Below, in pieces: positions 6,721 to 21,648 of a DNA stretch of 26,462 nt. The notes beneath the pieces are model-generated. The model searched no databases. It was given only the letters and a program-made list of their open reading frames with translations, and was not told the DNA's origin. Each line of letters begins with the position of its first letter. Within the stretch, counting starts at the first letter, position 1. Both the position numbers and the translations under genes were made by a program. Origin of the DNA: an uncultured Nitrosopumilaceae archaeon (GTDB lineage Archaea > Thermoproteota > Nitrososphaeria > Nitrososphaerales > Nitrosopumilaceae); the NCBI GenBank assembly GCA_964508325.1, contig CAZDTF010000001.1, positions 1 through 26,462 of the forward strand. The letters are read 5' to 3'.

Positions 6721-6923
6721 CGAGTTGTAAGTGTTAGAAAATCACATACAGGTTAGATCAAATTTTTAGGATTTGTTTGGTCGGAAGTTTTTTAAGTGAA
6801 TTTGTGGCGTCCTGATTTCTGATATTTCTGTGGGTTGCAAAACCCAATAAAACCAAGAAAAATGACATTATTTGACATATTAGGTGAATGAGATTTGATT
6901 TAAGATTATTAACCTCTGGCATG

Positions 6924-6941
6924 ATTTCCAAATATGGGAAT
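6924..6941. promoter_or_regulatory. Palindromic operator candidate ATTTCCA-AATA-TGGGAAT
   Basis: Overlaps the DMT start codon; TTATTAA lies at 6906-6912. One of five copies in the window. Confidence 0.6.
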
Positions 6942-7917
6942 CACTTCAGATATTGGGAGAATCAAATTCACATCCCCTACAACTTTAGGATATCTAGTTG
7001 TAATTATTGCTGCTACCCTAGAAGCTCTTCGGCAGATTCTATCAAAAGCATTGTTAGTACCAAGTGATCAGGTAACTGCAGAGTTAAATCCAGTTACTGT
7101 CTCTTTTTTCATTTTTATTATTAACGGATTATTTTTTTCACCACTTACCAGAAATAGTGGCTCAATTAGGAAAATCAAAAGAAAGGATTTATTTTTCTTA
7201 ATGTTAATAGGAATTGCGGAAAGTTCAGCGTTAATTACCTACTTTCTTGGATTACGTGACTCCACTGCACTTAATGCATCAGTCCTTAACAACGGAGAAA
7301 TAATGTTTTCAATTTTGTTAGCTGTTATAATTTTCCGCGAAAAGTTTCAAAAAATGGAACGAGTTCCTTTTGCAATGATAATAATCGGAATGGTAGTTTT
7401 ACCGATTGGTTATGACTTTTATGCCAACGGAATAACTATGACGAAGCTGGTTTTTGGCGATATTTTGCTTCTCTTGGCAGGACTGTTTTGGGCCCTTGAT
7501 ATCAACTTGTCACATCATATCAGTAGCAGATTAGGTTCACAACGAATAACCCAAATAGCTTCTTTTTTAGCAGGATTGTTTGCTTTGTGTTTGATTTTAG
7601 GTTTTCAAATTCCATTTAAAATTGATATAACACACATACCGTCTATTGCAATTGTTGGTATTGTTAGTATAGGAATGTCTACGGCTCTTTTCATTACAGG
7701 GTTAAAATTAATAGGAGCAGTACGAACAATCCTGATCTATTCCATAAATTCAGCTTTTGGAGTAATTTTTTCTGGTATATTTTTGCATGAAAATATAACC
7801 ATTGTTAGTATCCTTTCTGTTAGTTTGGCTTTCCTGGGAATTTATCTACTTAGAAATAGATTAGGCAGTGGTGGCCAAAAATTGACGGTAGGGGACAAAG
7901 AAGCAAAGCATGATTAG
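6934..7917 (+). CDS. DMT/EamA-family transporter
   Basis: About 10 TM helices in two EamA repeats; LAVIIFREK and FSGIFLHENIT end motifs. Confidence 0.9.
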   Translation: MGITSDIGRIKFTSPTTLGYLVVIIAATLEALRQILSKALLVPSDQVTAELNPVTVSFFIFIINGLFFSPLTRNSGSIRKIKRKDLFFLMLIGIAESSALITYFLGLRDSTALNASVLNNGEIMFSILLAVIIFREKFQKMERVPFAMIIIGMVVLPIGYDFYANGITMTKLVFGDILLLLAGLFWALDINLSHHISSRLGSQRITQIASFLAGLFALCLILGFQIPFKIDITHIPSIAIVGIVSIGMSTALFITGLKLIGAVRTILIYSINSAFGVIFSGIFLHENITIVSILSVSLAFLGIYLLRNRLGSGGQKLTVGDKEAKHD

Positions 7918-8419
7918 TTTTAAGAGATTATGCGAAAGTTGCCAGCATCAAGGGTGCTGCACAAATTCCTCTGTCCCATTAGTATTCCCAAGTGATTTAA
8001 ACGCATTAAAATCCATTGGAAAGTCTGGAGAGAAATACTTACAACTAGTTACAATAAAAGATAAAAAAGTATTTGCCCTTAAAAAGAAAAATAATTCAAA
8101 TGTTTGTATTTTCTGGGACGAAAATAAAAAAATGTGCTCAATTTATGAAAATAGACCATTTGATTGTAGAGCATATCCTTTTGACATTTGTCTAATTGAT
8201 GGAAAATACCATTGGATAGTGTATTCATGCAATCCAGATAGTGATTGGCACTGGAGTGAAAACTATTTACAGGCGTTAGAAAAAGACATGGAATTAAACG
8301 AAATTTTTAGCAATATTGAAACTTTTGCTAATAATACAGAATTAATTTTACCACGCGAATCAGAAAAAACTCCATACACAATATTACGTGAAGTAAAATA
8401 TAAAAAACCTGATGAATGA
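7910..8419 (+). CDS. YkgJ-family cysteine-cluster (Zn or Fe-S chelating) protein
   Basis: CESCQHQGCC...CIFWD...CSIYENRPFDCRAYPF signature; 8-bp overlap with the DMT gene. Confidence 0.9.
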   Translation: MISFKRLCESCQHQGCCTNSSVPLVFPSDLNALKSIGKSGEKYLQLVTIKDKKVFALKKKNNSNVCIFWDENKKMCSIYENRPFDCRAYPFDICLIDGKYHWIVYSCNPDSDWHWSENYLQALEKDMELNEIFSNIETFANNTELILPRESEKTPYTILREVKYKKPDE

Positions 8420-8477
8420 ATTTAGCAAGTTTTCTATTTCAGGATATACTAAGGCGATTGAAATTTACTATATTAAC

Positions 8478-8975
8478 TCAGAGTACTTTGGATGGAACAT
8501 AGGCTCCTTTTATTTTTTGTAACCTTTCCAATCTTTTCATAACGAAAGCTGTAGTTTCACGAACTTCAGGGTTTGGGTCCTCTAGGCTTTTGGATATCAA
8601 GTCTTTAGAATCAAATGCGCGCATCAACCCCAAAGATTCTATTGCTTCATGTTTTGCAATCACACTTTTATCATTTAAGGCAGTTTCAACCAAATCTGGG
8701 ATTTTCTTTCTCATGTTTCTAGCAGCAATTTGGTAACATGCTTCGTGTTTTACAACCCCATTGTTATCGTTCTTTAATACCCATGCCATAAGATCTGCAA
8801 CTTCATCAAATAATGGAGTATCGGGATTCATTTCTGCTATTTCCCCTGCTAGCCATACTGCATCCCAACGTAAGGATTCATCAGGTTCATTTTTTATTAT
8901 TGATATGCATTTATCTAGCCGTTCTCTAATTGGAAGATTTCTTAGTTTACCCTCATCAAGTATGATATTGCTCAT
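8478..8975 (-). CDS. HEAT-repeat protein with two HE motifs (half deoxyhypusine-hydroxylase-like)
   Basis: VVKHEACY, IAKHEAIESLG and DPNPEVRETT...KRLE. The ATG at 8975 is preferred over the TTG at 8981. Confidence 0.85.
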   Translation of the reverse strand: MSNIILDEGKLRNLPIRERLDKCISIIKNEPDESLRWDAVWLAGEIAEMNPDTPLFDEVADLMAWVLKNDNNGVVKHEACYQIAARNMRKKIPDLVETALNDKSVIAKHEAIESLGLMRAFDSKDLISKSLEDPNPEVRETTAFVMKRLERLQKIKGAYVPSKVL

Positions 8976-8992
8976 TTCCAAATATGGAAATG
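8973..8992. promoter_or_regulatory. Palindromic operator candidate CATTTCCA-AATA-TGGAAATG
   Basis: Perfect 8-bp arms. It overlaps the HEAT gene start and sits at the divergent promoter shared with the 9072 regulator. Confidence 0.65.
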
Positions 8993-9071
8993 CTATATCC
9001 GTAAATAAGGATTGTTATTTCATCATGAGACACACTACTCGATTTAACCATCATTATCCTATACTTGTATA

Positions 9072-9689
9072 ATGTCAGGATTAGACACACTTATTGCAAA
9101 ATCGTTAGATTCAACAATTAAGGAAAATTTAGGTAAAAAAACCTTAGAAAAAGTTGAACAGAGACTCTTTGAGCGATATGGTATAAATCTTACACAGTCT
9201 ATTGAAGATTTTACTAAACTTGATAGTGTACTAAAAGAGTTTTTTGGTGAAGGTGCAGAAGGACTAGAAAAACAATTCTTGGAAAATATAGTCAGAATAG
9301 AACAAGAATCAAAAACTCAAAGCCCAAATTGGGTTGCAATAGAAGATGCTTCTCTTGCCAAATTAATTTTAGAATCATTTGGAGATGAAGACAAGAAAAA
9401 CATTCTAAATTCTGTCTTAGATGAACCCAGGATCATTTCAGACATTCTAGAAATCTCAAAAATACCACAGACCTCTGGTTATAGAAAAGTCAATTCTTTA
9501 ATTGATAATGGTCTATTAATAGTTCAAGGTCACATTACTACACATGACGGAAAAAGGGTGAGTAAGTATAAATCAATATTTGAGAATGTAACAATCAATA
9601 TTGAAAAAAATAAGGTGGTCGTCAAAGTTCTACTTGCTAAAGAGTCAATAGAAAAAAGCTCTGTAATTCAAGTAGTCCAATGTAGATGA
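9072..9689 (+). CDS. Transcriptional regulator: DUF3227-like helical N-terminal domain plus winged HTH
   Basis: The N-terminus has LFERYGI...LKEFFGEGAEGLE. The C-terminus has DKKNILNSV...ISDILEISKIPQTSGYRKVNSLIDNGLL...GKRVSKY (ArsR-like wHTH with wing). Confidence 0.8.
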   Translation: MSGLDTLIAKSLDSTIKENLGKKTLEKVEQRLFERYGINLTQSIEDFTKLDSVLKEFFGEGAEGLEKQFLENIVRIEQESKTQSPNWVAIEDASLAKLILESFGDEDKKNILNSVLDEPRIISDILEISKIPQTSGYRKVNSLIDNGLLIVQGHITTHDGKRVSKYKSIFENVTINIEKNKVVVKVLLAKESIEKSSVIQVVQCR

Positions 9690-9695
9690 TCACAA

Positions 9696-10496
9696 GTGCT
9701 GCGTTGGAAAAGGCATTCTGATAAGCCAGACATAGTACCTGAAAAGCTAGAAAGCCCAATTGATCCAAAAATACTATTACTTATTTTTGGGATAGTAGTA
9801 TCATTTCAGATTTATTTGTATCAGGCTTTTCCAAAACCAGATGATGCTTCTCATCTGATTGATGTCATTTCTGTCATCAACCCACTGATCTCTTCAATTG
9901 CCGCATTTATTGTAGTTAAGAAATATTGGGGATCGCGTGTTTTTGGAAAAGCGTATCTTGCTTTAGCGATAGGGTTTACCATGAATTTTCTTGGAGAGAC
10001 TGTTTATGGGATCTACGACACTTTGGGTTATGATACAAGTTTTGGCCCCATGGATATACTCTTCTATGCATTTTACCCGTTGATAATGGCCCATTTAATA
10101 TTAAATATCAGGTTTTTCAAGCCAAAAGTTGGAATTCTAACCAAAGCATGGGTGATAGCCATCCCAGTTGCTATCACATTAGTTTATTCAATCTTGTCAT
10201 TTCAAAAACAGGGTGAGGCTAACTTTGCTTTCTATACTGGCATGATTTATGTAATCTTAGGTTCAGCCATTTTATCAGGCACCATGTTAGGAGCAAGGGT
10301 ATTCAGGCAAGGTGTACTAGGAATGTCTTGGTTTGTTCTATTGATTGGTGTCATACTCTTAACTGTAGGTGACGTATGGTATTCATACCTGGATACGTTT
10401 GATCAATACACGTTGACTCACCCAGTGAATTTATTTTGGTATGGTGGTTACATGTTAGTTACTTATGCATTATACAAACATCAAAAAATAATTTAA
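9696..10496 (+). CDS. Multi-pass membrane protein resembling a stand-alone sensor domain (paralogue A)
   Basis: About 8 TM helices; GKAYLALAIG...GETVY...DILFYAFYP and GDVWYSY...HPVNLFWYGGY. There is no cytoplasmic kinase domain. Confidence 0.75.
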   Translation: MLRWKRHSDKPDIVPEKLESPIDPKILLLIFGIVVSFQIYLYQAFPKPDDASHLIDVISVINPLISSIAAFIVVKKYWGSRVFGKAYLALAIGFTMNFLGETVYGIYDTLGYDTSFGPMDILFYAFYPLIMAHLILNIRFFKPKVGILTKAWVIAIPVAITLVYSILSFQKQGEANFAFYTGMIYVILGSAILSGTMLGARVFRQGVLGMSWFVLLIGVILLTVGDVWYSYLDTFDQYTLTHPVNLFWYGGYMLVTYALYKHQKII

Positions 10497-10530
10497 TTTT
10501 TCTAAACACTATTCTAATTAACTAGCTAAA

Positions 10531-10565
10531 AAATACAGTATCACAAGTAACTGTATTTCTTTTTT
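10531..10565 (+). terminator. Terminator-like hairpin with T-run
   Basis: AAATACAGT (10531-10539) pairs with ACTGTATTT (10550-10558), followed by CTTTTTT, about 35 nt after the 10496 stop. Confidence 0.45.
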
Positions 10566-10652
10566 ATTACTTAACGCTACATATCTAGTAAATGTGTTCC
10601 CATTTTTGGCAGAACAACCTTTTATCTGAATTAATCCAAACAACAATTAATA

Positions 10653-10880
10653 ATGTTACGAATAAATACGACCCAAAAACAATGCGAACTCCCTCAAAAA
10701 AGCAATCAACTATCAGGTTTTTCATTAGAAGAGTCCAGCTTTGACACAGTACATGTGATAAAAACTATGTTGAAAATCATTAAAATAAAATCAGGAGATA
10801 ATATGGACGAAGAGACCAAAGCCCAATTTTCAAAGATTACCGATGCTGTTGTACAAATGGTAGAAGAAGCAAGAGAATAA
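10653..10880 (+). CDS. Small protein resembling a degenerate HisKA/DHp helix pair
   Basis: VIKTMLKIIKIKSGDNMDEETKAQFSKITDAVVQM resembles the post-H-box segment of thaumarchaeal histidine kinases. An alternative short start is the ATG at 10803 with AGGAGA upstream. Confidence 0.5.
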   Translation: MLRINTTQKQCELPQKSNQLSGFSLEESSFDTVHVIKTMLKIIKIKSGDNMDEETKAQFSKITDAVVQMVEEARE

Positions 10881-10930
10881 TAGAAACAATCACATCTATA
10901 GCCAATTTTTAGTATGTAATTTCTTAAGAC

Positions 10931-11830
10931 ATGCAGACATCTAAAGAGGATCTAATAGATCAGTCTGTTACTCATATGACAAGCGACATGGCTAATTTTT
11001 CTGTAATAGGATCCACTCTAGAATCCAAATCATATGATTATGAAATGTTGCTAGAAAAATTGAAAAATGAATTATCTAAATTTGGATTAACTTCAAACCA
11101 ATCAAAAGTCTTCTTGTTTTTAGAAAAATATGGTCCAAGTACAGCAACCCAAGTAAGCAAGACTTTAAAGGTCCCAAGAACAGAGACGTATCATCTTCTT
11201 ACCCACCTTCAAAACAAGGGAATAGTATCTGCTACATTTCAACATCCGATCAAATTTTCAGCATTGTCACTTGACAAAGCAATAGGAGTTCTGATAAACA
11301 CTGAAAAAGAAAGAGTAAAAACTTTAGAAACTCAGGAAAAAGGTTTGGTTGATCTTTGGAACACTATTCCAAATTTTAAGATCGACCAAAATGATTCTAA
11401 AGAAGGTAAATTTCAGATGCTCCAAGGAATAAATCAAATGACTGGAAAAATAAATGAAATGATTACCAAAACAAAAAATGAACTCCTTATCTTAGGATCA
11501 GAAAAAGACTATATGAAGTTTTATCATTCAGGTTTTTTGGAACTGATCACAGACTCTAAAGTGGAAGCAAAATTGATCACATCATCATCTAAAAAAACAA
11601 CCTACATCTACGATCAAAAATTAATATCCAAAGTAAAGAAGATGCCAAGCAAAATTAAAGAAAATCTGTGCTTTATAATAAAAGACGACAACGAATTGCT
11701 TTTATTCATGAAAAATGTGAGTGAATCTCCACAAAATGTTGTAGCAATGTGGACTGATTCGACTTCAATGATTTACACGATGAAATTGCTTTTTGGCTAT
11801 ATCTGGTCAAACTCTAGACATATACAATAA
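10931..11830 (+). CDS. TrmB-family transcriptional regulator
   Basis: LSKFGLTSNQSKVFLFL...ATQVSKTLKVPRTETYHLLTHLQNKGIV (TrmB HTH), then a coiled linker and a C-terminal effector domain. Confidence 0.92.
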   Translation: MQTSKEDLIDQSVTHMTSDMANFSVIGSTLESKSYDYEMLLEKLKNELSKFGLTSNQSKVFLFLEKYGPSTATQVSKTLKVPRTETYHLLTHLQNKGIVSATFQHPIKFSALSLDKAIGVLINTEKERVKTLETQEKGLVDLWNTIPNFKIDQNDSKEGKFQMLQGINQMTGKINEMITKTKNELLILGSEKDYMKFYHSGFLELITDSKVEAKLITSSSKKTTYIYDQKLISKVKKMPSKIKENLCFIIKDDNELLLFMKNVSESPQNVVAMWTDSTSMIYTMKLLFGYIWSNSRHIQ

Positions 11831-11849
11831 TGAAGGAATAAAAACCAAC

Positions 11850-12137
11850 ATGGATTTTGAAAAAAATCAATTAAGAAAAGCATTAGTTAGTCTTGCTGTT
11901 GAAAGAGTGTTAATTGATATTGGAGATCCAGTTTACGAGAAAGTGATAAAGCAATTATCCAAAGACTATGATTGCTATTTGCCTGATTGTTATGAACATC
12001 CAGAATACCTAAACAAAGTTTTAAAGAAACTCTTTGGGAACTCTTTTGTCACTATTGTAGAAGCGATAAAAAAAGAACTGGAGGTTCAAATGATAGAAAA
12101 ACCCATCGAAGTCTTTATCAGTACAATAAGTGAGTAA
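11850..12137 (+). CDS. Small Nitrosopumilus output-domain (NitrOD)-like protein
   Basis: KALVSLAVERVLIDIG...YDCYLPDCYEHPEYLNKVLKKLFG is recalled as the thaumarchaeal output domain found with response regulators. ATG at 11850. Confidence 0.7.
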   Translation: MDFEKNQLRKALVSLAVERVLIDIGDPVYEKVIKQLSKDYDCYLPDCYEHPEYLNKVLKKLFGNSFVTIVEAIKKELEVQMIEKPIEVFISTISE

Positions 12138-12139
12138 AT

Positions 12140-12940
12140 TTGCAAAATAATTTTGAGAGATTACAAGAACAGAAGCTACTATTCACGTGCCTTATTATCA
12201 CAGGTCTTGGAATACTAATAGCTACATTTCTTGGAAAAGAAATGGTCAAAACAGTGACTGATCTAACATACGTTCCAGTAGCTGGAATGCTGGTTGTTTT
12301 ATCGATAATTATTTCAGCAAGATTTCGAAAAACTGGAAATCATGGCAAAGCTTGGCTATTATTCTCAGGCCTTGCAATTTCATGGTTTATTGCAGAAACA
12401 ACTTGGATCATTTATGAACTTGGATATCATCTTAATCCATTTCCATCGCCAGCAGACGCATTTTATCTTATAGGATATCCGTTTTTATTTTTGTTTACGA
12501 TACATTACCTCAAACCATTTAAGAAATTAATTTCAAAAAAATTAATAATTTCTGCTTCAGTGATTACGATATCAGTTCTAATTCCAAGTTTGTATATGAC
12601 AATTGAGAACCATTCAAATGAAAGTGGTTTTGGAGTTATTTTAGGCGCAATTTATCCAATTGAAGATTCCATAGTTCTTGTTCCAGCAATAATTGGTATT
12701 GTTTTATTTTTTAGAGGTGAAGTAAACTTTTTGTGGACACTATTGTTGATTGGAATTTTGTTTGAAGTAATAGCAGATACGGGATTTCAATATGTCACAC
12801 TAAATAATTCATATTATACTGGTCATCCCGTAGACATTTTATTCATATGGTCATACATCATGTTTTCATTTGGTGTTTATAGTCATATTAAGATATTCAA
12901 AAAGGAAAACAGAATAAAAGAATCCAATAAATTTGTATGA
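12140..12940 (+). CDS. Multi-pass membrane protein resembling a stand-alone sensor domain (paralogue B)
   Basis: GKAWLLF...AETTWIIYEL...PFPSPADAFYLIGYP and ADTGFQY...GHPVDILFIWSY; same pattern as 9696..10496. Confidence 0.78.
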   Translation: MQNNFERLQEQKLLFTCLIITGLGILIATFLGKEMVKTVTDLTYVPVAGMLVVLSIIISARFRKTGNHGKAWLLFSGLAISWFIAETTWIIYELGYHLNPFPSPADAFYLIGYPFLFLFTIHYLKPFKKLISKKLIISASVITISVLIPSLYMTIENHSNESGFGVILGAIYPIEDSIVLVPAIIGIVLFFRGEVNFLWTLLLIGILFEVIADTGFQYVTLNNSYYTGHPVDILFIWSYIMFSFGVYSHIKIFKKENRIKESNKFV

Positions 12941-12968
12941 AAATCTGTGTCAGATTAATTAAAATATG

Positions 12969-13331
12969 TTATAAATTCTGAATTTTTGATGACATGCCAA
13001 AACTGCTTTGTTTCAATTGGAAAAAGAATTTTTCTTTACCGTCATAATCACACTTTACAAGCTCAAGTTCTTCTCCTAGTATAGGCTTTTTTAATCCTGT
13101 TTCTAACTCGCCCATTATTCTAATTGTATTTTCAAACTCAGCTATGCAAAAATGTGTATCTTCTTTCGTTGAGAACTCAATTAACTTTCCATTCCTTGAT
13201 ACTTGTCTCCATATTACGTTACCAAAACAGATGCTACAGAAATCGTATGGAGGCCAAACAAGCTTATTGCATTTAGGACATTCACTACACACAAATTTGC
13301 CATTTTTTAGTTCGTTTTCAAATTGATTCAT
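12969..13331 (-). CDS. DUF35 Zn-ribbon/OB-fold protein (thiolase partner)
   Basis: CPKC...PP...CSIC ribbon followed by an OB fold; 4-bp overlap with the thiolase. Confidence 0.88.
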   Translation of the reverse strand: MNQFENELKNGKFVCSECPKCNKLVWPPYDFCSICFGNVIWRQVSRNGKLIEFSTKEDTHFCIAEFENTIRIMGELETGLKKPILGEELELVKCDYDGKEKFFFQLKQSSFGMSSKIQNL

Positions 13332-14437
13332 GATTCAAAAATAAGGACAGTCGATGAGGTAGCAGCTGCTGACATGTTTTGAACTAGTCCAACTTTGGCC
13401 CCATTAATTTGACGCTTTCCTGCTCTACTTTGAAGTTGTTGGCCAATCTCTACAACCTGGGCTATTCCAGTAGCTCCTAAAGGGTGTCCAGAACCTATCA
13501 ATCCACCTCTAGGATTAATTCGCCTATCTTGCGTTTCATACAAATTTTTAACAAATTGATTCCCTTTTCCTTTTTGAGCAAACCCAAGGTCTTCTACTTC
13601 CACAATTTCACATATGCTAAACGCATCATGAACTTCGGCAACATCGATATCAGTGGGTTCCTTTTGTGACATTACATATGCATCATTAGCTGCATGTTTA
13701 GTTGATTTCATACTAGTAAGATCCTCGTTTTTGGTAAACCCAGCAGAGATTGATTTTTGACCTACTCCTGTTATCCAGACTGGGCAATCAGTGAATTTTT
13801 TTATGGTCTCTTCTGATGCAAGGAGTACTGCAGCAGAACCACTACACGGAAAAGAACAATCTAAAATGCGTATATCCTGAGTAATATTTTTTGAATGCAT
13901 GATTTCATCAACAGAATATTCTCTATCAAAATAGGCAAATGGATTTGCTAGCGCATTTTTGTGATTTTTAGCAGATACAATTGCAAGGTCTTCCATCGTA
14001 GTACCATATTTTCGCATATGCGATCTAGTAAACATTGAAGACCAATATACGGGATGTTTGTATTGACCTCGTGATTTGTCCCATTCTAAAACCAGACCCG
14101 GATTATCAAATTTTTCTGCGCCAACTACCAAGGCAACATCTGCCAAACCTGAGGTAATGTATGAAAAGGCAGAAATTACACTATTTGCACCAGAATTGCA
14201 CAAACTCTCAACTGAGTGAGATATTTTTGGTGAAATTCCTGCAATCTCAGACACTATGTTTGCCAAGTATTTGCTATTGTCATTAGTTGAAGTAAGAACA
14301 ACACTTACATCATTTTGAGTCAGGTTGGAAGTGTTTTCAAAAAGTGACTTTATTGAAGATAGCATCAGAGACGCTATGGAAACATCCTCTTTGTTGAATT
14401 TTGTGAGGCCAAATCCGCCAATGGCTACTCTTCTCAA
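13328..14437 (-). CDS. Thiolase-family protein (archaeal/SCP2-like)
   Basis: VESLCNSG, NHKNALANPFA, EVHDAF and NPRGGLIGSGHPLGATG. Confidence 0.92.
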   Translation of the reverse strand: MRRVAIGGFGLTKFNKEDVSIASLMLSSIKSLFENTSNLTQNDVSVVLTSTNDNSKYLANIVSEIAGISPKISHSVESLCNSGANSVISAFSYITSGLADVALVVGAEKFDNPGLVLEWDKSRGQYKHPVYWSSMFTRSHMRKYGTTMEDLAIVSAKNHKNALANPFAYFDREYSVDEIMHSKNITQDIRILDCSFPCSGSAAVLLASEETIKKFTDCPVWITGVGQKSISAGFTKNEDLTSMKSTKHAANDAYVMSQKEPTDIDVAEVHDAFSICEIVEVEDLGFAQKGKGNQFVKNLYETQDRRINPRGGLIGSGHPLGATGIAQVVEIGQQLQSRAGKRQINGAKVGLVQNMSAAATSSTVLIFES

Positions 14438-15405
14438 TTTTTACTACCTGATAGCGTAGAGACAAGTAGTTTAAAGGATTTCGTAACTTTGTCTATTGGA
14501 TTAAACTGTATGATTGGCAACGAAACACCAGCTTTTACGAACTTTTCTAGCTTTTTCTTACAATCTTCTGGAGTACCACAGATAGTAAGAGAATCAAGCA
14601 TATCGTCAGAAACTAGTTTGTAATTTGTATCAAGACCAGATTTTTTGTATTCATCATATATGCCTTGCACTTCTTTTGCAAATCCATTTTTTGCTAAAAA
14701 TTCTCTATAAATTTTTCCAACCGACACATAAAATGCAAGTGTCATTTTTGCTCGATGTATTGCCTTGTCTTCATCTTCAGATAGGCAAGTAATGAATTGA
14801 CTAGATACATCAATTTTTTTCTTCGTTTGCATTTTTTGTATTGTCTTTTGAAGTTCTGAAATGGGTCTCAAGTAGAATATTACACCGTCAGCAATTTCCC
14901 ATGATAACTCAACCATTTTTTGGTTTATCGCAGATATATAAATTGGGATTTTCTTTCTTGGTGGCTTGATCAATAATGAAAAATTTTTTAGATGAAATAA
15001 CTTTCCATCATAATTTGCTTTCTTTCCAGATAATATCAGATGAATTATTTCTACATATTCACGCATTCGTTGGACCGGTTGATCAAATTCAAGGCCATGC
15101 CAATCTTGTACAATAGGCTCACTGCTTGTTCCCAATCCGAGTATTAATCTCCCGTTTGATAGTGTGTCAAGAGTTGCTGCGCCCATTGCGATAAGTGACG
15201 GCGTCCTAGAATAGATGTTGATTATCGATGAACCAATTTTTGAATTTTTTACAATTTGTGACACTGTACCAAGCATTGATAACCCTTCCATCCCCCAAGT
15301 CTCAGGAATCCAAATAGAATCAGGATTATATCTGGATAAAATTTTAGCACATTCTAATAATTCATTTATGGATAACAGTGACCCTAAGCTATAAGCAACT
15401 CTCAT
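14434..15405 (-). CDS. LLM-class (probably F420-dependent, Mer-like) oxidoreductase
   Basis: IWIPE, YSRTPSLIAMGAATLDTLSNGRLILGLGTS, IPIYISA and GTPEDC. Confidence 0.92.
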   Translation of the reverse strand: MRVAYSLGSLLSINELLECAKILSRYNPDSIWIPETWGMEGLSMLGTVSQIVKNSKIGSSIINIYSRTPSLIAMGAATLDTLSNGRLILGLGTSSEPIVQDWHGLEFDQPVQRMREYVEIIHLILSGKKANYDGKLFHLKNFSLLIKPPRKKIPIYISAINQKMVELSWEIADGVIFYLRPISELQKTIQKMQTKKKIDVSSQFITCLSEDEDKAIHRAKMTLAFYVSVGKIYREFLAKNGFAKEVQGIYDEYKKSGLDTNYKLVSDDMLDSLTICGTPEDCKKKLEKFVKAGVSLPIIQFNPIDKVTKSFKLLVSTLSGSKN

Positions 15406-15411
15406 AGGTTC

Positions 15412-16101
15412 TCATTTTTTAAATATAAAATTCTCATAGCCATACGAATCCATGTCATTTGCACATTGTTCAATATCTTTGTGAGAGTCTATTGAGCGCC
15501 AAAAAGCCTTCACATATTTAACAGCAAAAAGAGATCCTTTTTTTGCAAGTAATGGAAATGTAGTTTTTTCTATATTTCCTTTTTTTGGAATGTATCTAAG
15601 TATTTCTTTCGTCAAATAATAAACGCCAGCATTCATCCAATAATCTAAAATTTCAGGTTTTTCTTCAAATCTTTTTACACTGTCATTAGTTAGATGTACA
15701 ACACCAAATGATGTCCTAAGAGGAATTATCGCAATTGAGTTTGGATTTGTTTTTAATTGTCTTGGATCGAGATTTGTAATTACATCACCATTTATTACAA
15801 AAAAGTTTTCGTCGTCGATAAGATTACTGGCTTTTTTTATTGCCCCGCCAGTACCAAGCATTGTTTTTTCAATGGAATAATCAATTTTTATAACATTTTT
15901 TTTTGGTTTAAGATAATTTACTATCTGATCACTTTTGTATCCTGCACAGATAACAAACTCGTTTATGCCAAATTTTTGGAAATATCTTATCTGCCACTCT
16001 ATTAATGGGATATTGTTTATCGGAACAAGTGATTTTGGCACATAATCTGTCATTGGTTTTAGTCTTGTACCTGCTCCACCTGATAAAATGATGGCCTTCA
16101 T
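15412..16101 (-). CDS. Sugar-phosphate nucleotidyltransferase (NTP_transferase domain only)
   Basis: MKAIILSGGAGTRLKPMT..VPKSL, LGTGGAIK, NGDV, FEEKP and NAGVY. Confidence 0.92.
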   Translation of the reverse strand: MKAIILSGGAGTRLKPMTDYVPKSLVPINNIPLIEWQIRYFQKFGINEFVICAGYKSDQIVNYLKPKKNVIKIDYSIEKTMLGTGGAIKKASNLIDDENFFVINGDVITNLDPRQLKTNPNSIAIIPLRTSFGVVHLTNDSVKRFEEKPEILDYWMNAGVYYLTKEILRYIPKKGNIEKTTFPLLAKKGSLFAVKYVKAFWRSIDSHKDIEQCANDMDSYGYENFIFKK

Positions 16102-16224
16102 AGATAGTTGCTAAGTTTTTTACAATTAAAACATTTGCAAAACAAATTTTTGTTAAGTCAATTCAAGCAAAGAAGGTCTGTGAGTTTTCATAGGTTTATT
16201 AATTGTAGACAGAACAACAAGACT

Positions 16225-16641
16225 ATGGCATTAAAGGCAGCAATAATAATGTCGGTTATTTCAATTGCCATGCTTGCAATTTATGGAGTAGATGTCATGG
16301 CTACAGGTCCACAAACTGGAAACAGTAATGACAACCAAAAAGCTGGCTTTCTTCAGATGAATTCATCTGCTAGAGGATCAATTTTTGGCATAGTTCCATC
16401 TGCCATGTTAATAATATCATTTTTTATTACAAGAAAAGAACCATCAAAAAAGCTTGGAATCTTAATTATAATTGGCGGTGCATTAATCATCATTGGAACT
16501 GCCGTAATTCTTGGTATGCAAGGAGCACAACTGCCAGATAGGGCAGTACGCGAATTTGGAGCTGTACTTGGTATAGGAATAATCATTACAATTTTGGGAA
16601 GCTTGAAGATAAAAAAATCCACCAAAGTTGCAACCGCTTAA
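16225..16641 (+). CDS. Hypothetical membrane protein (about 4 TM)
   Basis: The ATG at 16225 (MALKAAII) is preferred over the track start at 16108; four hydrophobic segments. Confidence 0.75.
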   Translation: MALKAAIIMSVISIAMLAIYGVDVMATGPQTGNSNDNQKAGFLQMNSSARGSIFGIVPSAMLIISFFITRKEPSKKLGILIIIGGALIIIGTAVILGMQGAQLPDRAVREFGAVLGIGIIITILGSLKIKKSTKVATA

Positions 16642-16775
16642 TGAGCATGCCTGCATGTACAAAATGTGGTCAAGATGCAAAAAAGACATACAATTGTGAA
16701 CATACAAGCGAACAAGAATACTGTGTCGAATGTTATACGGAATTACATTATTACCTGACAGAACCAAGCCCATAA
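16641..16775 (+). CDS. Zinc-finger microprotein (44 aa; not in ORF track)
   Basis: MSMPACTKCGQDAKKTYNCEHTSEQEYCVECYTELHYYLTEPSP*. The ATG overlaps the upstream TAA (TAATG). Confidence 0.78.
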   Translation: MSMPACTKCGQDAKKTYNCEHTSEQEYCVECYTELHYYLTEPSP

Positions 16776-16794
16776 AATAACCCATATCTATCTT

Positions 16795-16812
16795 ATTCCC
16801 AGAAATGGGAAT
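16795..16812. promoter_or_regulatory. Palindromic operator candidate ATTCCCA-GAAA-TGGGAAT
   Basis: Perfect 7-bp arms, about 60 nt upstream of ORF 16872. Confidence 0.6.
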
Positions 16813-16871
16813 CTGCATGTCTACAAAAATGACACGCAAGTATACAATAAAACCAAGTTATTACACATCTC

Positions 16872-17306
16872 ATGCAAGTCTTAAAGGAAGAGACAGGACC
16901 ATTCGAATCATGGTATCAACAACATCTGAATACGCAAAATCTATCTACAATTCCTAGTTTAATAACAGATGAAAATCTTGGTTTTGCAGATATTCAATCG
17001 ATAGAATTTAATGTCACGCAGCCTAACAATGAGGAACCTACTACCAAAAATGAACCAATTAACAGTTCTAAAATAGCAATCCTAACTGAATCAATGGTCA
17101 ACAAAGCACAAGAAGTGATTACAAAGTTTGAGCAAGATAATGATGAACATATAGTCAAGATAACAAAGTTGATGATTGACAAAACTCAAGAGCGTTTGGC
17201 AAAGTTTGAAGAAATAGATGACATCAGATATAACTTGGCATTGAAGCACCAAGACAGATTGGTCAAAGTTAGATTTGAATCACTTAAGAATGCAGAAACT
17301 GTATAA
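16872..17306 (+). CDS. Hypothetical protein with helical C-terminal duplication
   Basis: 144-aa ATG ORF with two copies of a 26-aa-period motif. Confidence 0.65.
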   Translation: MQVLKEETGPFESWYQQHLNTQNLSTIPSLITDENLGFADIQSIEFNVTQPNNEEPTTKNEPINSSKIAILTESMVNKAQEVITKFEQDNDEHIVKITKLMIDKTQERLAKFEEIDDIRYNLALKHQDRLVKVRFESLKNAETV

Positions 17307-17396
17307 AATCTATTTCGATTAGTATTATCAGCAAGATCTGTAAATAGATTTTATAAGAATTAATGCAAAGGTAGTTTGATTTACTAGTAAAGGTTG

Positions 17397-17428
17397 TATT
17401 ATAAACAGATATTCCCAAAAATGGAAAT
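17397..17428 (+). promoter_or_regulatory. TATA-like box plus palindrome ATTCCCA-AAAA-TGGAAAT upstream of the pilin operon
   Basis: TATTATAAA at 17397-17405 and the palindrome at 17411-17428; the first pilin ATG is at 17491. Confidence 0.6.
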
Positions 17429-17490
17429 TAGGGTGTCTTAATGAGATACACGCAATCGTACAATAGAGAATTGATGTAACTCTTTCTCAT

Positions 17491-17967
17491 ATGAGAAGAG
17501 GTCGAAAAGGTTCCAGACCAGGAGTAGCTACGATAGTTACTACTGCAATAATGCTTACAACCGTTGCAATCATGGGCAGCGGGGTTGTCGTATGGGGCCA
17601 TTCAAACATTTTTCAAAATGAAGGTGCTATCGCAAGATCTTTTTCTAATAACGTAAATCAAATTAATGAAAATCCAATAATTGAAAAAATTTGGTTTTGT
17701 AAAATTCAAAGTAACTGTCCAAGTAAACCAGTCCCAGCAGTTAACATCACTTTGAACAATCAAGGCAACGTAGGTCTAAATGTAACACAAATACAATTTA
17801 GCACTTCAACCAAAACCACCCAATATCATTATAGCAATCAAACAATCATATCACAAAGAACAGGATCAATATTAATTCCGTATGCATATAGCAGTAATGT
17901 ACTTACCAACATTCAGGTTACTACTGCAAGAGGTACAACAATTTCAACACAGGCATTACCACCATGA
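17491..17967 (+). CDS. Archaeal type IV pilin-like protein
   Basis: Basic leader MRRGRKGSRPG, then hydrophobic VATIVTTAIMLTTVAIMG; ends with the VTTARG pilin-like strand. Confidence 0.82.
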   Translation: MRRGRKGSRPGVATIVTTAIMLTTVAIMGSGVVVWGHSNIFQNEGAIARSFSNNVNQINENPIIEKIWFCKIQSNCPSKPVPAVNITLNNQGNVGLNVTQIQFSTSTKTTQYHYSNQTIISQRTGSILIPYAYSSNVLTNIQVTTARGTTISTQALPP

Positions 17968-19478
17968 ATAATGGAAATGAGACAAATATTGTAAAAGCAT
18001 TTTTTAAGAAATCTAAACCATATCTGAAAGACAGAGCGTACCATAGTTACAGAAGAGGAATTTCAGGCGTACTTGCTGCAGTAATTATGCTTTCAACTGT
18101 TTCTGTAATGGGTACAACAGCTGTTGTCTGGTCTCAAAGTAATCTACACACTAGAGAACAGGCCACAGGTTCGCTTTATTCTAACATCATAAATAAAGTT
18201 AAAGAATCCCTTATACTGGAACATTTTTGGTACAACACCCCTAGTCAAAATCTTAACGTTGTATTGAAAAATACTGGTGAGGATGGCCTTCATATTATTC
18301 AGATCGAAGTTGATGGTCCTACTCGTCAAATCACACCCATCATCAATGGAGGGATTGTTCCAAACGGAATTTACATGGGAGTAGTTCATTATTACTGGCT
18401 AGGAGACCCACTTGAGGTTTATGTAACAACAGACAGAGGCTCAATATTTCATTTTCACTTGGGATCCCCAACAGATGGTACGTTAATCATTAAGAAGGTT
18501 TCAAAATTAGGCAACGGCAATTTTAGTTTCAATGGTGACTTGGGAAAATTTAATGTAAATACGACAGGTTGGAGTACAGGAGCAAATCTTTTGCCAAATG
18601 GAAGTTTAATCATGTCTGGAGTAATTCGTGACTTTAATGGAACAGATCACCGTGGGGGTAATCCAGACTTCGAGAGGCCATGTCTGCTATTATCATGCCC
18701 TTATGGACTTCATGCTGGCATTGTACTCCCAAACCTTGGAGCTGATCATGAACCAGTTTATAACAATCAAACCAATTATGTATTTAATAATGGATTTACG
18801 ACGTTTAACCAATGGTATCATGATTCCTCATTTGGCATGAAGAAAAATTTGAACATTACACTTAACAAACTTCCTCCAAATCCTCCCAATCCTACAACAT
18901 GGACTTACAACAATACTAGTTTCTTTCCTATAGACAAACAGCTATTTTGCCAAGGCAATTTAACTTGTAGCTATAGTGATAAACAAATCCCAATATCCCA
19001 CTATCATAATTATGGTTTTACCTACGAGGTTCACTCTTCGTTTACATACCAAGGTGGAGAAACTTTCTACTTTAGTGGAGACGATGATGTGTGGGTTTTC
19101 ATTAACCATAAACTTGCCCTTGATTTAGGAGGAGTACATGCCTTAGCAAAAGCTGTAATCAAATTGGATCAAAATAAAACTCAACTTGGTATTACACCTG
19201 GAGGCACCTATGACTTTGACTTTTTCTATGCGGAGCGCCACACGGTCAGCTCTGATATGGAAGTTACCACCTCTATCCAGCTTGGTCAAAATGGTGTTGG
19301 AACCACAAGTGCCTTCTTTGTGGACCCAGGAAAATACACCATAAATGAATTGGTTCCCAACGGATGGACTCTAATAGGCAGACAATGTGATAATAGTTAT
19401 ACTCTTCCAAATTCCACTGAGATTACAATTACAGTACCAAAAGGAGTAACCACCTGCACCTTTACGAATACACAATAG
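17964..19478 (+). CDS. Pilin-like adhesin: class III signal peptide, pilin domain, fibro-slime/PA14 domain and prealbumin-like fold
   Basis: RRG|ISGVLAAVIML and VTTDRG; fibro-slime motifs IRDF, NPDFE, FNQWY, FFPID, HNYGFTYEVH, FSGDDDVWVFIN..LALDLGGVH and FFYAERH. ATGA overlap with the upstream gene. Confidence 0.88.
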   Translation: MNNGNETNIVKAFFKKSKPYLKDRAYHSYRRGISGVLAAVIMLSTVSVMGTTAVVWSQSNLHTREQATGSLYSNIINKVKESLILEHFWYNTPSQNLNVVLKNTGEDGLHIIQIEVDGPTRQITPIINGGIVPNGIYMGVVHYYWLGDPLEVYVTTDRGSIFHFHLGSPTDGTLIIKKVSKLGNGNFSFNGDLGKFNVNTTGWSTGANLLPNGSLIMSGVIRDFNGTDHRGGNPDFERPCLLLSCPYGLHAGIVLPNLGADHEPVYNNQTNYVFNNGFTTFNQWYHDSSFGMKKNLNITLNKLPPNPPNPTTWTYNNTSFFPIDKQLFCQGNLTCSYSDKQIPISHYHNYGFTYEVHSSFTYQGGETFYFSGDDDVWVFINHKLALDLGGVHALAKAVIKLDQNKTQLGITPGGTYDFDFFYAERHTVSSDMEVTTSIQLGQNGVGTTSAFFVDPGKYTINELVPNGWTLIGRQCDNSYTLPNSTEITITVPKGVTTCTFTNTQ

Positions 19479-19491
19479 AGTTAATTAGAAA

Positions 19492-20694
19492 ATGAAACAT
19501 CATAACACAATATTTGGAAAAGGTTTGAACGATAGAAAAGGAATAAGCACCATAGTAGGAAGTGTGTTTTTTATTATAATTTTCACATCAGTTGCATCCT
19601 ACGTACTTTATAGCATGAATCAAATAGATCAATTTGGAGTAGCTGTTATTGGCAAAGGTCAAGACAATATAAACAGAAATAGCGAAGCGTTTGAAATCAC
19701 GGGTGTCACTGAAGACAATAACAAATTCAACGTTACCATACAAAATACAGGTCAACTTCCTGTAAATATAACTAGATTATGGATTCAAAATAAAACAGAT
19801 CCCACTTGGCCTACTACAAAATTCTCTATAAACCAGATTGTAGCACCAGGACAGACTCTTACCAAGATAGGTGAGAATCTTCAACTTACTGCAAAATCTT
19901 CTCAGGCATACGATATCTCCCTGGTGACAGAAAGAGGAAACACTAAAGAATTTCTGGTAAATTCTGCTAGTCAAAAACCTCTTTATCTTCAGCTTTTTGT
20001 TTTACCTGATAAGATCTCATCAGGGTTTGATACCACATTACTACTTGCAGTTACAAATAACATGTCTAATAATGGGATTTTGACAAATCTTGTGCCAAAT
20101 GCTACTACTATTAGAGCTCCTCTTGGTGCCACTGTAACGTGGGTTTCAGGCCCAGAGCCAGCAGTATATCCGATATTGCAAAAAGGAGACACCGCGTATT
20201 TCAAATGGATTTATAATATTTCTGGAAACAGTGGGCAGGGAATTAATTTTACTTCATCGCTTCAAAATAGTTATCTTGGAAATTCTGTCTCAAGAAATGC
20301 TACCATTACTCAGATTCAAGGGATTCCAACCGTAAAAACCGTTATGGGTGGAGGATTAAATGGTACAATATCTAGTAATGTATTAAATTATTTGAAATTT
20401 TTTGGAGATAGCAAACCAAGTACAACTTATAATCTAAAAAGCATGATTATGCCGATTAGTGGTACGTTCAAAAACTTGTATGTGAGTAAAGTAACTGGTT
20501 CTGGTACTGCTACTTTGACATTATACAAGAATGCTGTAAGTAGTGGAATAACTTGTACCACTGGAACATCATGCCCGGATACAGGACATTCAGTAAGTGT
20601 TAATGCTGGAGATACAGTTGCGATGGCAATACAATTTTCAAATTTGGTACCAAATGGAGACGTTACGTTTACTGTAGAATTTGATCCTAATTAA
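19492..20694 (+). CDS. Large pilin-like protein with class III signal peptide
   Basis: RKG|ISTIVGSVFFIIIF and QNTGQLPVNITRLWI...LVTERGN, followed by extra beta-rich domains. Confidence 0.85.
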   Translation: MKHHNTIFGKGLNDRKGISTIVGSVFFIIIFTSVASYVLYSMNQIDQFGVAVIGKGQDNINRNSEAFEITGVTEDNNKFNVTIQNTGQLPVNITRLWIQNKTDPTWPTTKFSINQIVAPGQTLTKIGENLQLTAKSSQAYDISLVTERGNTKEFLVNSASQKPLYLQLFVLPDKISSGFDTTLLLAVTNNMSNNGILTNLVPNATTIRAPLGATVTWVSGPEPAVYPILQKGDTAYFKWIYNISGNSGQGINFTSSLQNSYLGNSVSRNATITQIQGIPTVKTVMGGGLNGTISSNVLNYLKFFGDSKPSTTYNLKSMIMPISGTFKNLYVSKVTGSGTATLTLYKNAVSSGITCTTGTSCPDTGHSVSVNAGDTVAMAIQFSNLVPNGDVTFTVEFDPN

Positions 20695-20732
20695 AAATTA
20701 GATTATAAAATTTAAATTGACTCAATTAGTTA

Positions 20733-21437
20733 TTAAATCACTTTGACATTGTGTATTATATTAAAAATAATGTCTCCAAATAAAAGTTGAGATACAAACC
20801 CAGCTGTTATGTATAACATATACGGTATGCCTGGAGTCACCCAAGTATCTGGAGTGGTGCTAAATGTAGCATTTTCTGCGTGACGAAATGAAAAATCAAG
20901 CTTTCTAAGATTCCCTTCCTTTTTTTCAATTGGAAAACTATATTTTGGATTTTTAGCACGATATCCAAGAAACATTGCTAGTGTCTTTTTTAGACTAGTT
21001 TCCTCAAACCCCTCAAAAATATTTTTGTGCAAAGAAATAGCTATGATATTACGAATAAAATTCCCAAATATTGGGATAATTGAAAATATAGCAGCATTTG
21101 TCAGGATGGTAAAAGGAGTAATTATTCCATGAGAGAAGCTTGCCTGAGGGGCTAATGCTGCCAAGACTATCAATCCTAATGCATCTGCGCCCCCAAAAAG
21201 ACCAGTTCGCCAAATGACTATGGCAACTGGAGCAATAATTAAGGAGAACCCACTAGATTTTAGAGAATCAAGCTGACTTGGTGAAAATATAATTAATAAA
21301 ACGGCAACGGCCCCAAAGGCAATCCACAAAATGTCGTGAATTTCTCGCTTCCAGATATCCCATATGGAAGCAATTGCTAACATGATGAGGGCTGAAAAGA
21401 TCTGTAAATTATGGATGTCAAAGACTAATTCAGCCAT
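20733..21437 (-). CDS. A24-family prepilin/preflagellin peptidase (PibD/FlaK-like)
   Basis: ASIWDIWKREI (first Asp), FGGADA (second Asp, GxGD-like) and C-terminal VTPGIPYMLYI. Confidence 0.9.
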   Translation of the reverse strand: MAELVFDIHNLQIFSALIMLAIASIWDIWKREIHDILWIAFGAVAVLLIIFSPSQLDSLKSSGFSLIIAPVAIVIWRTGLFGGADALGLIVLAALAPQASFSHGIITPFTILTNAAIFSIIPIFGNFIRNIIAISLHKNIFEGFEETSLKKTLAMFLGYRAKNPKYSFPIEKKEGNLRKLDFSFRHAENATFSTTPDTWVTPGIPYMLYITAGFVSQLLFGDIIFNIIHNVKVI

Positions 21438-21630
21438 GCTATTGCCTCATGTTTCTTAGATAAATTGTGAGATCTCAAAAAAAATTACCGTACTACCTGA
21501 AATATTTGAAGCTTGGTTGAATAATAGTATGTAATATTTTGTTAAGACTGTTATTATTAAATAATACTTGGATCAGGAAAAATTTGTTTTCGTTTCCAAA
21601 CGATCTTTTTTAATTTTAATTAAATTTCAT

Positions 21631-21648
21631 ATTTCCAAAAATGGAAGA
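21631..21648. promoter_or_regulatory. Palindromic operator candidate ATTTCCA-AAAA-TGGAAGA
   Basis: Located in the divergent region between the peptidase (start 21437) and ORF 21684; an AT-rich TATA-like stretch lies at 21615-21624. Confidence 0.5.

Follow-up and report, generated by a model that had tools for sequence, protein, structure and literature searches.

A recurrent palindrome at core promoters of Nitrosopumilaceae archaea as a putative operator of a winged-helix repressor family

The stretch of DNA considered here (the window) comprises 26,462 nucleotides of an uncultured Nitrosopumilaceae archaeon (GenBank assembly GCA_964508325.1, contig CAZDTF010000001.1, positions 1 to 26,462). 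It carries several copies of an 18-bp palindrome, ATTYCCA-nWWn-TGGRAAT, in the promoters of genes for transport, a HEAT-repeat protein and type IV pili. As judged from the sequence and its distribution, this element is very probably a protein operator. Its binder is quite likely a member of the family of P0001, a winged helix-turn-helix (wHTH) protein encoded beside one of the copies, and analogy with known archaeal regulators makes repression a fairly likely mode of action. Taken as a whole, the reading favoured here, with moderate confidence, is that the palindrome serves as the operator of a dimeric wHTH repressor of the P0001 family at the core promoters of a regulon.

The window is contig C1 of the source genome, G000, which comprises 1.47 Mb in 293 contigs, is about 70% complete and has 35.6% G+C; the other G codes (G001-G043) denote genomes of relatives. 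The closest public relatives of G000 are metagenome-assembled genomes (MAGs) from soil and groundwater labelled Thaumarchaeota or Nitrosopumilaceae, and the host is a soil ammonia-oxidising archaeon. A sequence-only reading of the window had listed five copies of ATTYCCA-N4-TGGRAAT and a weaker sixth one. When the sequence was read again, all five were found in their places. The sites are the following:

6924 to 6941: operator site 1 (ATTTCCAAATATGGGAAT), perfect match; the ATG of the EamA/DMT gene lies at motif position 11
8974 to 8991: operator site 2, perfect match; the ATG of the HEAT gene (8975, minus strand) lies at the motif end (positions 17-19); 81 nt upstream of the wHTH gene
10596 to 10613, plus strand: asymmetric variant site (GTTCCCATTTTTGGCAGA) with a TGGCAGA half; upstream of the small open reading frame (ORF) 10653 and the TrmB-like gene
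16795 to 16812: operator site, perfect match; 77 nt upstream of ORF 16872-17306, with a TATA-like box at 16772-16780
17411 to 17428: operator site of the pilin operon promoter, perfect match; a TATA-like box at 17397-17408 ends about 3 nt upstream
21631 to 21648, plus strand: asymmetric site (ATTTCCAAAAATGGAAGA) with two mismatches (TGGAAGA half); between the prepilin peptidase gene and the small ORF 21684

The perfect 8-bp arms described for the copy at 8973-8992 and the perfect 7-bp arms of that at 16795-16812 are correct. At site 6924, the TATA-like box (6898-6911) ends 13 nt upstream. For the ORF behind site 16795, G007 and G008 lack a clear orthologue, and that in G004 is only weak. With up to two mismatches allowed, the window holds eight matches; among 100 dinucleotide shuffles, the mean number was 0.99 and the highest 4. 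The matches at 15574, 21060 and 25640 were rejected as chance occurrences, being inside coding sequence and with the CCA/TGG core broken.

The occurrence of the motif is also far from random across the genome. G000 contains seven perfect copies, four of them in the window, and all seven are intergenic or lie over a start codon; the same kind of position (intergenic or straddling a start codon) is found for 13 of the 14 copies with at most one mismatch. The core TYCCA-N4-TGGRA has 35 matches in G000, 60% of them intergenic. Identical arms placed around a spacer of N2, N3, N5 or N6 give 11-16 matches each, of which 0-17% are intergenic, so that the intergenic enrichment is restricted to the 4-nt spacing. 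Unrelated palindromes of equal composition were found to be rare and coding. A weight matrix trained solely on sites from other genera, whose orthologues are at most 75% identical, returned 14 intergenic and 4 ‘coding’ matches in G000 at a score of at least 16, a 24-fold excess per bp. Several of these ‘coding’ matches are artefacts of ORF calling. The ORF calls cover 87% of G000, and the crude caller labels some promoter sites as coding (for instance C162:2423, C30:8835 and C207:1853, given as contig and position), owing to which the intergenic fractions are underestimates. Matches are thus far commoner in intergenic than in coding or shuffled DNA, the reverse of what the sequence-only reading had named as grounds for giving the motif up.

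Relatives were compared in three ways. The first search was motif-first and covered 31 genomes, from the same genus, other genera of the family and other families of the order. A family-wide table was then drawn up for 151 Nitrosopumilaceae genomes, with the perfect motif, the wHTH protein at E<=1e-40 and the TrmB-like protein at E<=1e-80. Lastly, 80 loci were retrieved via the wHTH protein from MAGs labelled Nitrosotalea, Nitrosotenuis, Nitrosarchaeum and Nitrosopumilus and from Ca. Nitrosotalea devanaterra; a site in these loci is a motif with at most one mismatch. The genes that matter most in this comparison are given below:

6934 to 8419, plus strand: target operon of an EamA/DMT transporter (6934-7917) and a CxxCxxCC/YkgJ-like protein (7910-8419)
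8478 to 8975, minus strand: target gene for a HEAT-repeat protein related to deoxyhypusine hydroxylase (DOHH); Pfam HEAT_2
9072 to 9689, plus strand: P0001, candidate cognate regulator of 205 aa
17491 to 20694, plus strand: target operon of a pilin-like gene, a PA14/SpaA-domain protein and a third surface protein
20733 to 21437, minus strand, and 21684 to 21929, plus strand: prepilin peptidase and an 81-aa ORF, the divergent pair around site 21631

Among the 31 relatives, the perfect motif is present in nine of the ten same-genus genomes (1-6 copies) and in four of the eight other genera of the family. The 12 other families of the order that were searched yielded none, and a reversed control pattern gave zero matches among the 31 relatives. 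Of the perfect sites in relatives, 26/33 lie outside called ORFs and most of the others overlap start codons or short doubtful ORFs; the two clearly within long ORFs belong to genomes without the wHTH protein. The 151 family genomes hold 138 perfect sites, whereas the reversed control occurs there 7 times. Several genomes repeat a pair of sites spaced by about 2.04 kb, which synteny identifies as the DMT-start and HEAT-start sites. These two are conserved in G003, G004, G007 and G008 and are rearranged in another genus (G017). In the 80 loci, the DMT homologue starts with a site in 41 of 49 cases and the HEAT homologue in 26 of 42, with 23 of the latter at one fixed offset; nine other neighbouring gene families, which served as controls, have 0-2 such starts each.

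The sites of the pilus locus are conserved as well. That of the pilin operon is the best-conserved block of an otherwise diverged upstream region in G007 and G008, and the pilin homologues in G004 and G017 likewise have a site upstream. The site between the peptidase gene and the 81-aa ORF is conserved in G007 and G008, and the asymmetric form ATTTCCA-N4-TGGAAGA occupies the same position in 9/11 Nitrosotalea-type loci, including that of Ca. Nitrosotalea devanaterra; a paralogous locus of G000 also has this site in the corresponding place, at C162:2423. An absence of conservation upstream of orthologues had been named as a further reason to abandon the motif; instead, the sites are conserved in several genera. 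An origin as a mobile element or miniature inverted-repeat transposable element was considered and rejected, the element being 18 bp only and in orthologous positions.

The anatomy of the site was derived from 61 non-identical orthologous sites, which give the consensus ATT(Y)CCA-nWWn-TGG(R)AAT. There is almost no variation at positions 2, 3, 5, 6 and 7 and at positions 12, 13, 14, 16 and 17. Positions 4 and 15 do vary, each independently of the other (28 Watson-Crick pairs observed, 27.6 expected), and no compensatory base changes that keep the pairing were found in the arms across these sites. Arms that are invariant in sequence and lack compensatory change point to recognition by a protein rather than to a folded nucleic acid. 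The spacer had been described as always A/T-rich; this holds in the window, but across the 61 sites only the central two positions are nearly so (93% A/T), the outer two being at about 80%.

The position of the site in the promoter is equally regular. A TATA-like box (ATTA/TTATT/TTTAAA types) precedes the motif at nearly every site, with its end 2-13 nt away, and this bears out the earlier remark that the sites lie just downstream of such a box. Upstream of 450 ATG genes of G000 with at least 70 nt of upstream sequence, there is an A/T peak at -31..-25 from the start codon and hardly any Shine-Dalgarno signal, from which leaderless mRNAs, with the start codon as their 5' end, appear to be common in G000. 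In this genus, the start codon of the DMT gene coincides with position 11 of the motif; in other genera, it is found at 17 or 22. That of the HEAT gene consists, in almost all genomes, of motif positions 17-18 and the G that follows. The motif would thus span roughly -16 to +8 of the expected transcription start at the DMT and HEAT genes, and would end at about -1 of the expected start at the pilin promoter. In some Nitrosotenuis-type HEAT promoters (loci L093, L096, L101, L111, L122 and L124), two copies flank the TATA-like box, one of them about 40 nt upstream, an arrangement which suggests cooperative binding or looping in this lineage. As a separate observation, a GTGT-rich short inverted repeat (e.g., GTGTCT..AGATAC) lies in the presumed 5' untranslated region just 3' of the pilin-operon site, at 17429-17455. 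The orthologous presumed 5' untranslated regions were compared in G007, G008 and G004, with a GTGTGT..ACACAC counterpart in G007, and similar GTGT elements occur 3' of the motif at several further promoters.

It has been reported for TrmBL1 that an archaeal regulator bound downstream of the TATA box hinders the recruitment of RNA polymerase, while the same protein bound upstream can activate (PMC4706686). Phr also recognises a palindrome and exerts negative control (PMC10746257). By this logic, we infer that the sites described here are repressor operators. The repression proposed in the sequence-only reading fits this anatomy, in which leaderless genes have the site placed after the TATA box and before the start codon.

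The candidate regulator, P0001, has a family of about 670 members in the databases, which are without exception thaumarchaeal and annotated at most as ‘transcriptional regulator’. The family has no Pfam domain above threshold (HTH_5, HTH_20, ArsR PF09824 and TrmB); only sub-threshold matches to TrmB, ArsR and MarR were obtained, the best for P0001 being TrmB with 17 bits against a cut-off of 25.6. ArsR PF09824 matches 3/26 members at E 0.003. The AlphaFold (AF2) model of P0001, with a pLDDT of 82, has three parts: the first 73 residues or so form a helical domain, a winged helix occupies about 91-173, and a beta/helix extension makes up the C-terminus. No match at E<=0.001 was returned by Foldseek for the whole model against the PDB. 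The VIA structure search, which covered residues 91-173 and thus had the N-terminal domain outside its range, places the modelled winged helix with the ArsR/Phr type, with PH1932 (Z 10.8), NolR, SmtB, CzrA and Phr among the top structural matches. Within the family, there is hardly any change in the putative recognition helix, PQTSGYRK, in agreement with the invariant half-site.

The linkage between this protein and the motif is seen at several levels. In the motif-first search, ten genomes have a perfect site 80-210 nt from the wHTH gene. Across the 151 family genomes, motif and wHTH co-occur with an odds ratio of 15 (46/15/15/75), and wHTH-positive genomes account for 114 of the 138 perfect sites. 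Both the motif and the wHTH protein are missing from the same-genus genome G002, which is 95% complete, and the apparent exception of genus g34 has a 31%-identical wHTH that adjoins the HEAT/DMT sites. In the 80 loci, a site lies 80-92 nt upstream of 26 of the 85 wHTH gene copies, in several genera, and sites peak sharply at -90..-101 from the wHTH start in 27 loci of Nitrosotalea-, Nitrosotenuis- and Nitrosopumilus-labelled MAGs. The density around the wHTH genes amounts to 104 sites in 593 kb, or one per 5.7 kb, as compared with one per 105 kb genome-wide. The site is even kept when the neighbour changes: in G013, a response-regulator gene replaces the HEAT gene as the divergent neighbour and the site lies over the start of that gene. 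Of the two regulators proposed earlier from the window, it is the wHTH protein that receives strong support, from its conserved adjacency and its phylogenetic co-occurrence. The case for the TrmB-like protein is weaker, though it is possibly a partner at the asymmetric sites of pilus-type loci.

These asymmetric sites deserve separate mention. The sixth copy of the window, at 10596-10613, is real and forms a conserved island in three same-genus genomes (G004, G007 and G008), yet it is less a weak copy than a member of a distinct class with a TGGMAGA half. The pattern YCCA-N4-TGGCAG, taken from the oriented class ATTYCCA-N4-TGGCAGA, has 14 matches in G000, of which nine are intergenic, and the TGGCAGA half faces the downstream gene in eight of these nine. 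Examples are C124:117, C33:4303, C136:3297, C5:4297, C42:7681, C183:1513 and the window site itself. Four of the genes 3' of such sites are regulators of the wHTH or TrmB-like families. A TGGCAGA/TGGAAGA half precedes the TrmB paralog on C124 as well as the N-domain-only and C-domain-only paralogs on C33 and C136. Sites of this class ahead of regulator genes hint at a regulatory hierarchy.

The wHTH paralogs occur in two types of context, namely the DMT/HEAT/7TM type (7TM, seven-transmembrane), which includes P0001, and a pilus type, in which a TrmB-like gene comes directly after the wHTH gene and a prepilin peptidase gene next, with an asymmetric site beyond. In G000, contig C162:1-3276 is a second, paralogous module of the pilus type, and its gene order is repeated in Ca. 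Nitrosotalea devanaterra. The TrmB-like gene of the window and the features of C162 are as follows:

Window, 10931 to 11830, plus strand: TrmB-like regulator with Pfam TrmB and Regulator_TrmB domains
C162, 47 to 640: wHTH paralog, 55% identical
C162, 771 to 1628: TrmB-like paralog
C162, 1691 to 2386, minus strand: prepilin-peptidase paralog
C162, 2423: site ATTTCCAAAATTGGAAGA, with a surface-protein fragment beyond

A division of labour between paralogs, or a partnership of wHTH and TrmB-like proteins at the asymmetric sites, is possible from this arrangement. With regard to the TrmB-like gene itself, it was observed that the orthologues in G001, G007, G008 and G009 have an in-frame TAG within the stretch matching the first ~10 residues of the window ORF (10931-10965); the true start of 10931-11830 is thus probably a few codons downstream.

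Several observations weigh against assigning the sites to P0001 as repressor operators. The 80 loci were chosen via the wHTH gene, and the linkage in them is partly there by construction; the independent support comes from the motif-first searches and the 151-genome table. The genomes are related and not independent, so that the odds ratios overstate significance. There are 15 genomes with the wHTH protein and no perfect site, and 15 with a perfect site and no close wHTH homologue; some of these mismatched genomes are explained by divergent homologues or by chance matches in coding sequence. G000 has at least three full-length P0001 paralogs, each a possible reader of the sites. The site 81 nt upstream of the wHTH gene lies upstream of that gene's own TATA box, a position from which activation is possible in other archaea, and the sign of regulation is therefore not necessarily uniform. 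Non-core targets are mixed in relatives, and the ‘surface regulon’ is accordingly a tendency of this genus rather than a rule. Lastly, the TrmB-like protein shares the cluster and co-occurs with the motif in the 151 genomes with an odds ratio of 6.6.

This last point leads to the explanation that the operator is real and is bound by the TrmB-like protein 10931-11830 and its paralogs, or by an obligate wHTH/TrmB pair, and not by P0001 alone. TrmB-family proteins are dimeric palindrome binders (PMC4706686). The TrmB-like gene lies 2 kb from site 8974, with the conserved variant site 10596 upstream of its operon, its paralogs adjoin wHTH paralogs in the asymmetric-site pilus-type loci and on C162, and nine of the 15 genomes that are motif-positive and wHTH-negative have a TrmB-like gene. 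The distribution across genera nevertheless makes this explanation unlikely. Genus g27 has the TrmB-like gene in 9/9 genomes and the motif in 0/9, whereas genus g32 has the motif in 6/9, the wHTH protein in 8/9 and the TrmB-like protein in 0/9 at E<=1e-80. Moreover, the DMT/HEAT modules of G017, G013 and G043 have the sites and the wHTH gene and no TrmB-like gene nearby, of the 30 TrmB homologues that the 80 loci contain, just 2 are preceded by a site at a distance of up to 150 nt, and the TrmB-family motif TATCAC-N5-GTGATA is unrelated in both sequence and spacing.

It may also be argued that an unlinked factor, such as one among the numerous thaumarchaeal TFB/TBP paralogs or a nucleoid protein, binds a promoter-class element and that the wHTH gene is a mere conserved neighbour of two targets. 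The element indeed stands at core-promoter distance from the TATA-like box, its targets in relatives are functionally mixed, and the 15 genomes with perfect sites and no close wHTH homologue would be accounted for. This explanation is nonetheless improbable, as two-fold symmetry, a strict 4-nt spacing and invariant half-sites are the signature of a dimeric sequence-specific factor, and a basal element would not be expected at a TATA distance that varies over 2-13 nt, or with a second site upstream of the TATA box, as at some promoters. Furthermore, the motif tracks the wHTH family, being absent from the 12 other families of the order that were searched, and its linkage to the wHTH gene outlives the change of neighbouring target gene in G013. 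An inverted repeat could, on the other hand, work as an RNA 5' hairpin affecting stability or translation, or as a DNA cruciform. Perfect 7-8 bp arms around a 4-nt loop can fold, and transcripts from the pilin, 16795 and 21631 promoters might include part of the motif. Such a role is very hard to reconcile with the independent variation at 4/15, the sole variable pair, with the C/A mismatches on the transcribed strand of the pilin site and with predicted RNA hairpins that are weak (-1.7 to -8.2 kcal/mol). The sites also occur in both orientations, and since the DMT and HEAT start codons lie inside or at the edge of the motif, the 5' arm would be outside the mRNA; this explanation is thus highly improbable.

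Under the favoured reading, that of an operator for a P0001-family repressor, the dimeric winged-helix factor would sit between the TATA-like box and the transcription start of a mostly leaderless gene. TBP/TFB would stay on the TATA box, and either the recruitment of RNA polymerase or the opening of the promoter would be blocked, leading to repression. The ancestral core regulon would be local, with the EamA/DMT(-YkgJ) operon and the divergently oriented HEAT/DOHH-like gene as its members. Its growth within this genus would have added the type IV pilus locus and genes for secreted and cell-surface proteins on other contigs. The TGGMAGA asymmetric sites, which are present at the peptidase/small-ORF promoter and ahead of regulator genes, may be read by the pilus-type paralog, possibly along with the TrmB-like protein.

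The input to the system is probably a 7TM sensor-like protein, which the gene arrangement predicts to be co-transcribed with the regulator:

9696 to 10496, plus strand: P0122, a membrane protein of eight helices, after a 7-nt gap behind the regulator gene

The homologues of P0122 are confined to thaumarchaea. Its model (pLDDT 86) matches in fold the N-terminal 7TM input modules found in histidine kinases and in GGDEF and HAMP proteins, and P0122 itself has no output domain; two further matches of the model carry an HTH-domain annotation, and proteins of some bacteria that are annotated as HTH-containing have this fold. In 42 of the 80 loci, across genera, a P0122 homologue is no more than 1.5 kb away from the wHTH gene, which suggests that P0122 feeds a signal to P0001. 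The window contains a paralog of P0122 at 12140-12940, which likewise stands alone without an output domain. A bolder and rather doubtful proposal would be that P0001 and P0122 constitute a split, kinase-less transmembrane one-component system, in which the sensor acts via the lineage-specific N-terminal domain of P0001 and switches a programme of pilus, cell-surface and transport genes in ammonia-oxidising archaea, with the asymmetric TGGMAGA sites read by a second paralog or by a wHTH/TrmB hetero-complex to give a two-tier network.

The regulon had been described as spanning transport, the HEAT gene and the pilus locus. These targets stand, and the putative regulon is larger than was claimed, with at least ten further promoters on other contigs. 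The predicted conserved core consists of the DMT and HEAT genes, together with the regulator. The HEAT protein 8478-8975 matches human DOHH (4d4z) over residues 63-157 with a phmmer E of 6.3e-9, and the label ‘half-DOHH’ given to it earlier is in keeping with this match. Outside the window, high-scoring sites in G000 precede two near-identical secreted Big_3_5/fn3 proteins. Two contig-end segments, C108:4250-4873 and C28:1-1280, are nearly identical in their promoter and 5'-gene parts (a secreted Big_3_5 protein with a perfect site) and are either recent paralogs or strain/assembly duplicates. A secreted phosphoesterase of 1737 aa in G000 has an upstream site with a score of 23.4, and a second one, of 1207 aa, has a weaker site nearby (12.8); both proteins, at C22:622-5835 and C36:4532-8155, combine a PF04185 domain with Ig-like domains. 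An upstream site is also present at a phosphodiesterase-APS kinase fusion, in G000 and likewise in G006 and G009. Further G000 genes with an upstream site encode a family-2 glycosyltransferase, an Ig-domain protein, a PepSY protein and a universal stress protein. In the relatives, perfect sites precede PPDK, a histidine kinase/response regulator pair, purD, purK/KaiC, riboflavin synthase and an Hcp-like gene. The two giant phosphoesterases and the phosphodiesterase with their sites had raised the idea of a phosphate-starvation response; this was dropped, as pst/pho genes are not among the targets and the targets in relatives are mixed. The remaining genes of the region include a CDF transporter gene, in or around the studied part, and, towards the window end, a large Ig-domain protein followed by TadC-like and ATPase genes, which complete the type IV pilus locus.

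Ammonia-oxidising archaea (AOA) are globally important and, to our knowledge, almost nothing is known of their gene regulation. The 18-bp site and the 205-aa protein thus offer a testable pair for AOA, and relatives that are cultured or enriched, Ca. Nitrosotalea devanaterra among them, carry the module. It combines a conserved core regulon, the EamA transporter and the DOHH-like HEAT protein, with type IV pili and secreted proteins as an extension specific to the lineage. Across the family, the HEAT/DOHH-like gene, itself unexplained, would be co-regulated with the EamA transporter, which may help in assigning a function to the HEAT protein.

Among known systems, the NrpR operator of methanogens is a GGAA-N6-TTCC palindrome that overlaps the promoter and works in repressor mode. 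The resemblance lies in a short palindrome built on GGAA/TTCC; the arms here are, however, in the opposite order (TTCCA-N4-TGGAA), and no NrpR-type protein turned up in the window, where no search aimed at NrpR was made. The site consensus of the 61 sites fits neither TATCAC-N5-GTGATA nor half-sites of the TACT-N-AGTA type. The Lrs14/AbfR-type regulators of Sulfolobus are, like P0001, small archaeal wHTH proteins, and they control type IV pilus-like appendages and biofilm; Lrs14 genes are never found within pilus loci (PMC4858521), whereas the regulator genes here are linked to them, and no shared operator is known. AbfR2 is among the weaker structural matches of P0001 (rank 49), at the level of the generic wHTH fold. 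For archaeal type IV pili, a survey lists only unstudied predicted regulators in such loci (PMC4858521), and no described thaumarchaeal motif, operator, regulon or map of transcription start sites for this family was found in the literature.

Further parallels are with TrmB/TrmBL1 and with Phr. The Thermococcales glycolytic motif (TGM) bound by TrmB and TrmBL1 is TATCAC-N5-GTGATA (PMC4706686). As in that system, a palindromic site would be paired with a dimeric archaeal wHTH regulator, and the cluster here contains a TrmB-like gene; the half-site differs from that of the TGM, the spacing is N4 instead of N5, and the TrmB-like protein tracks the motif less well than the wHTH protein does. Phr, which regulates the heat-shock response in Pyrococcus furiosus, and its paralog PH1932 are archaeal ArsR-type wHTH repressors. 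The winged helix of P0001 superposes best on PH1932 (2cwe; Z 10.8 over 79 residues, with a root-mean-square deviation of 2.4), and 101-106 positions align with Phr (2p4w), including part of the C-terminal extension; the putative operator here is Phr-like in lying at the core promoter. In contrast, sequence identity to the two proteins is just 14-17%, P0001 stays under the thresholds of all the curated family models, and its N-terminus carries an additional helical domain, of about 75 residues, which is also found as a stand-alone protein. The operator sequence is unrelated to that of Phr, the regulon comprises a transporter, a HEAT protein and pili rather than chaperones, and the P0001 family is restricted to Nitrosopumilaceae and relatives. 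The motif and its regulator therefore appear to be a previously undescribed pair, which by analogy would work in the manner of a Phr- or TrmBL1-type repressor and its operator.

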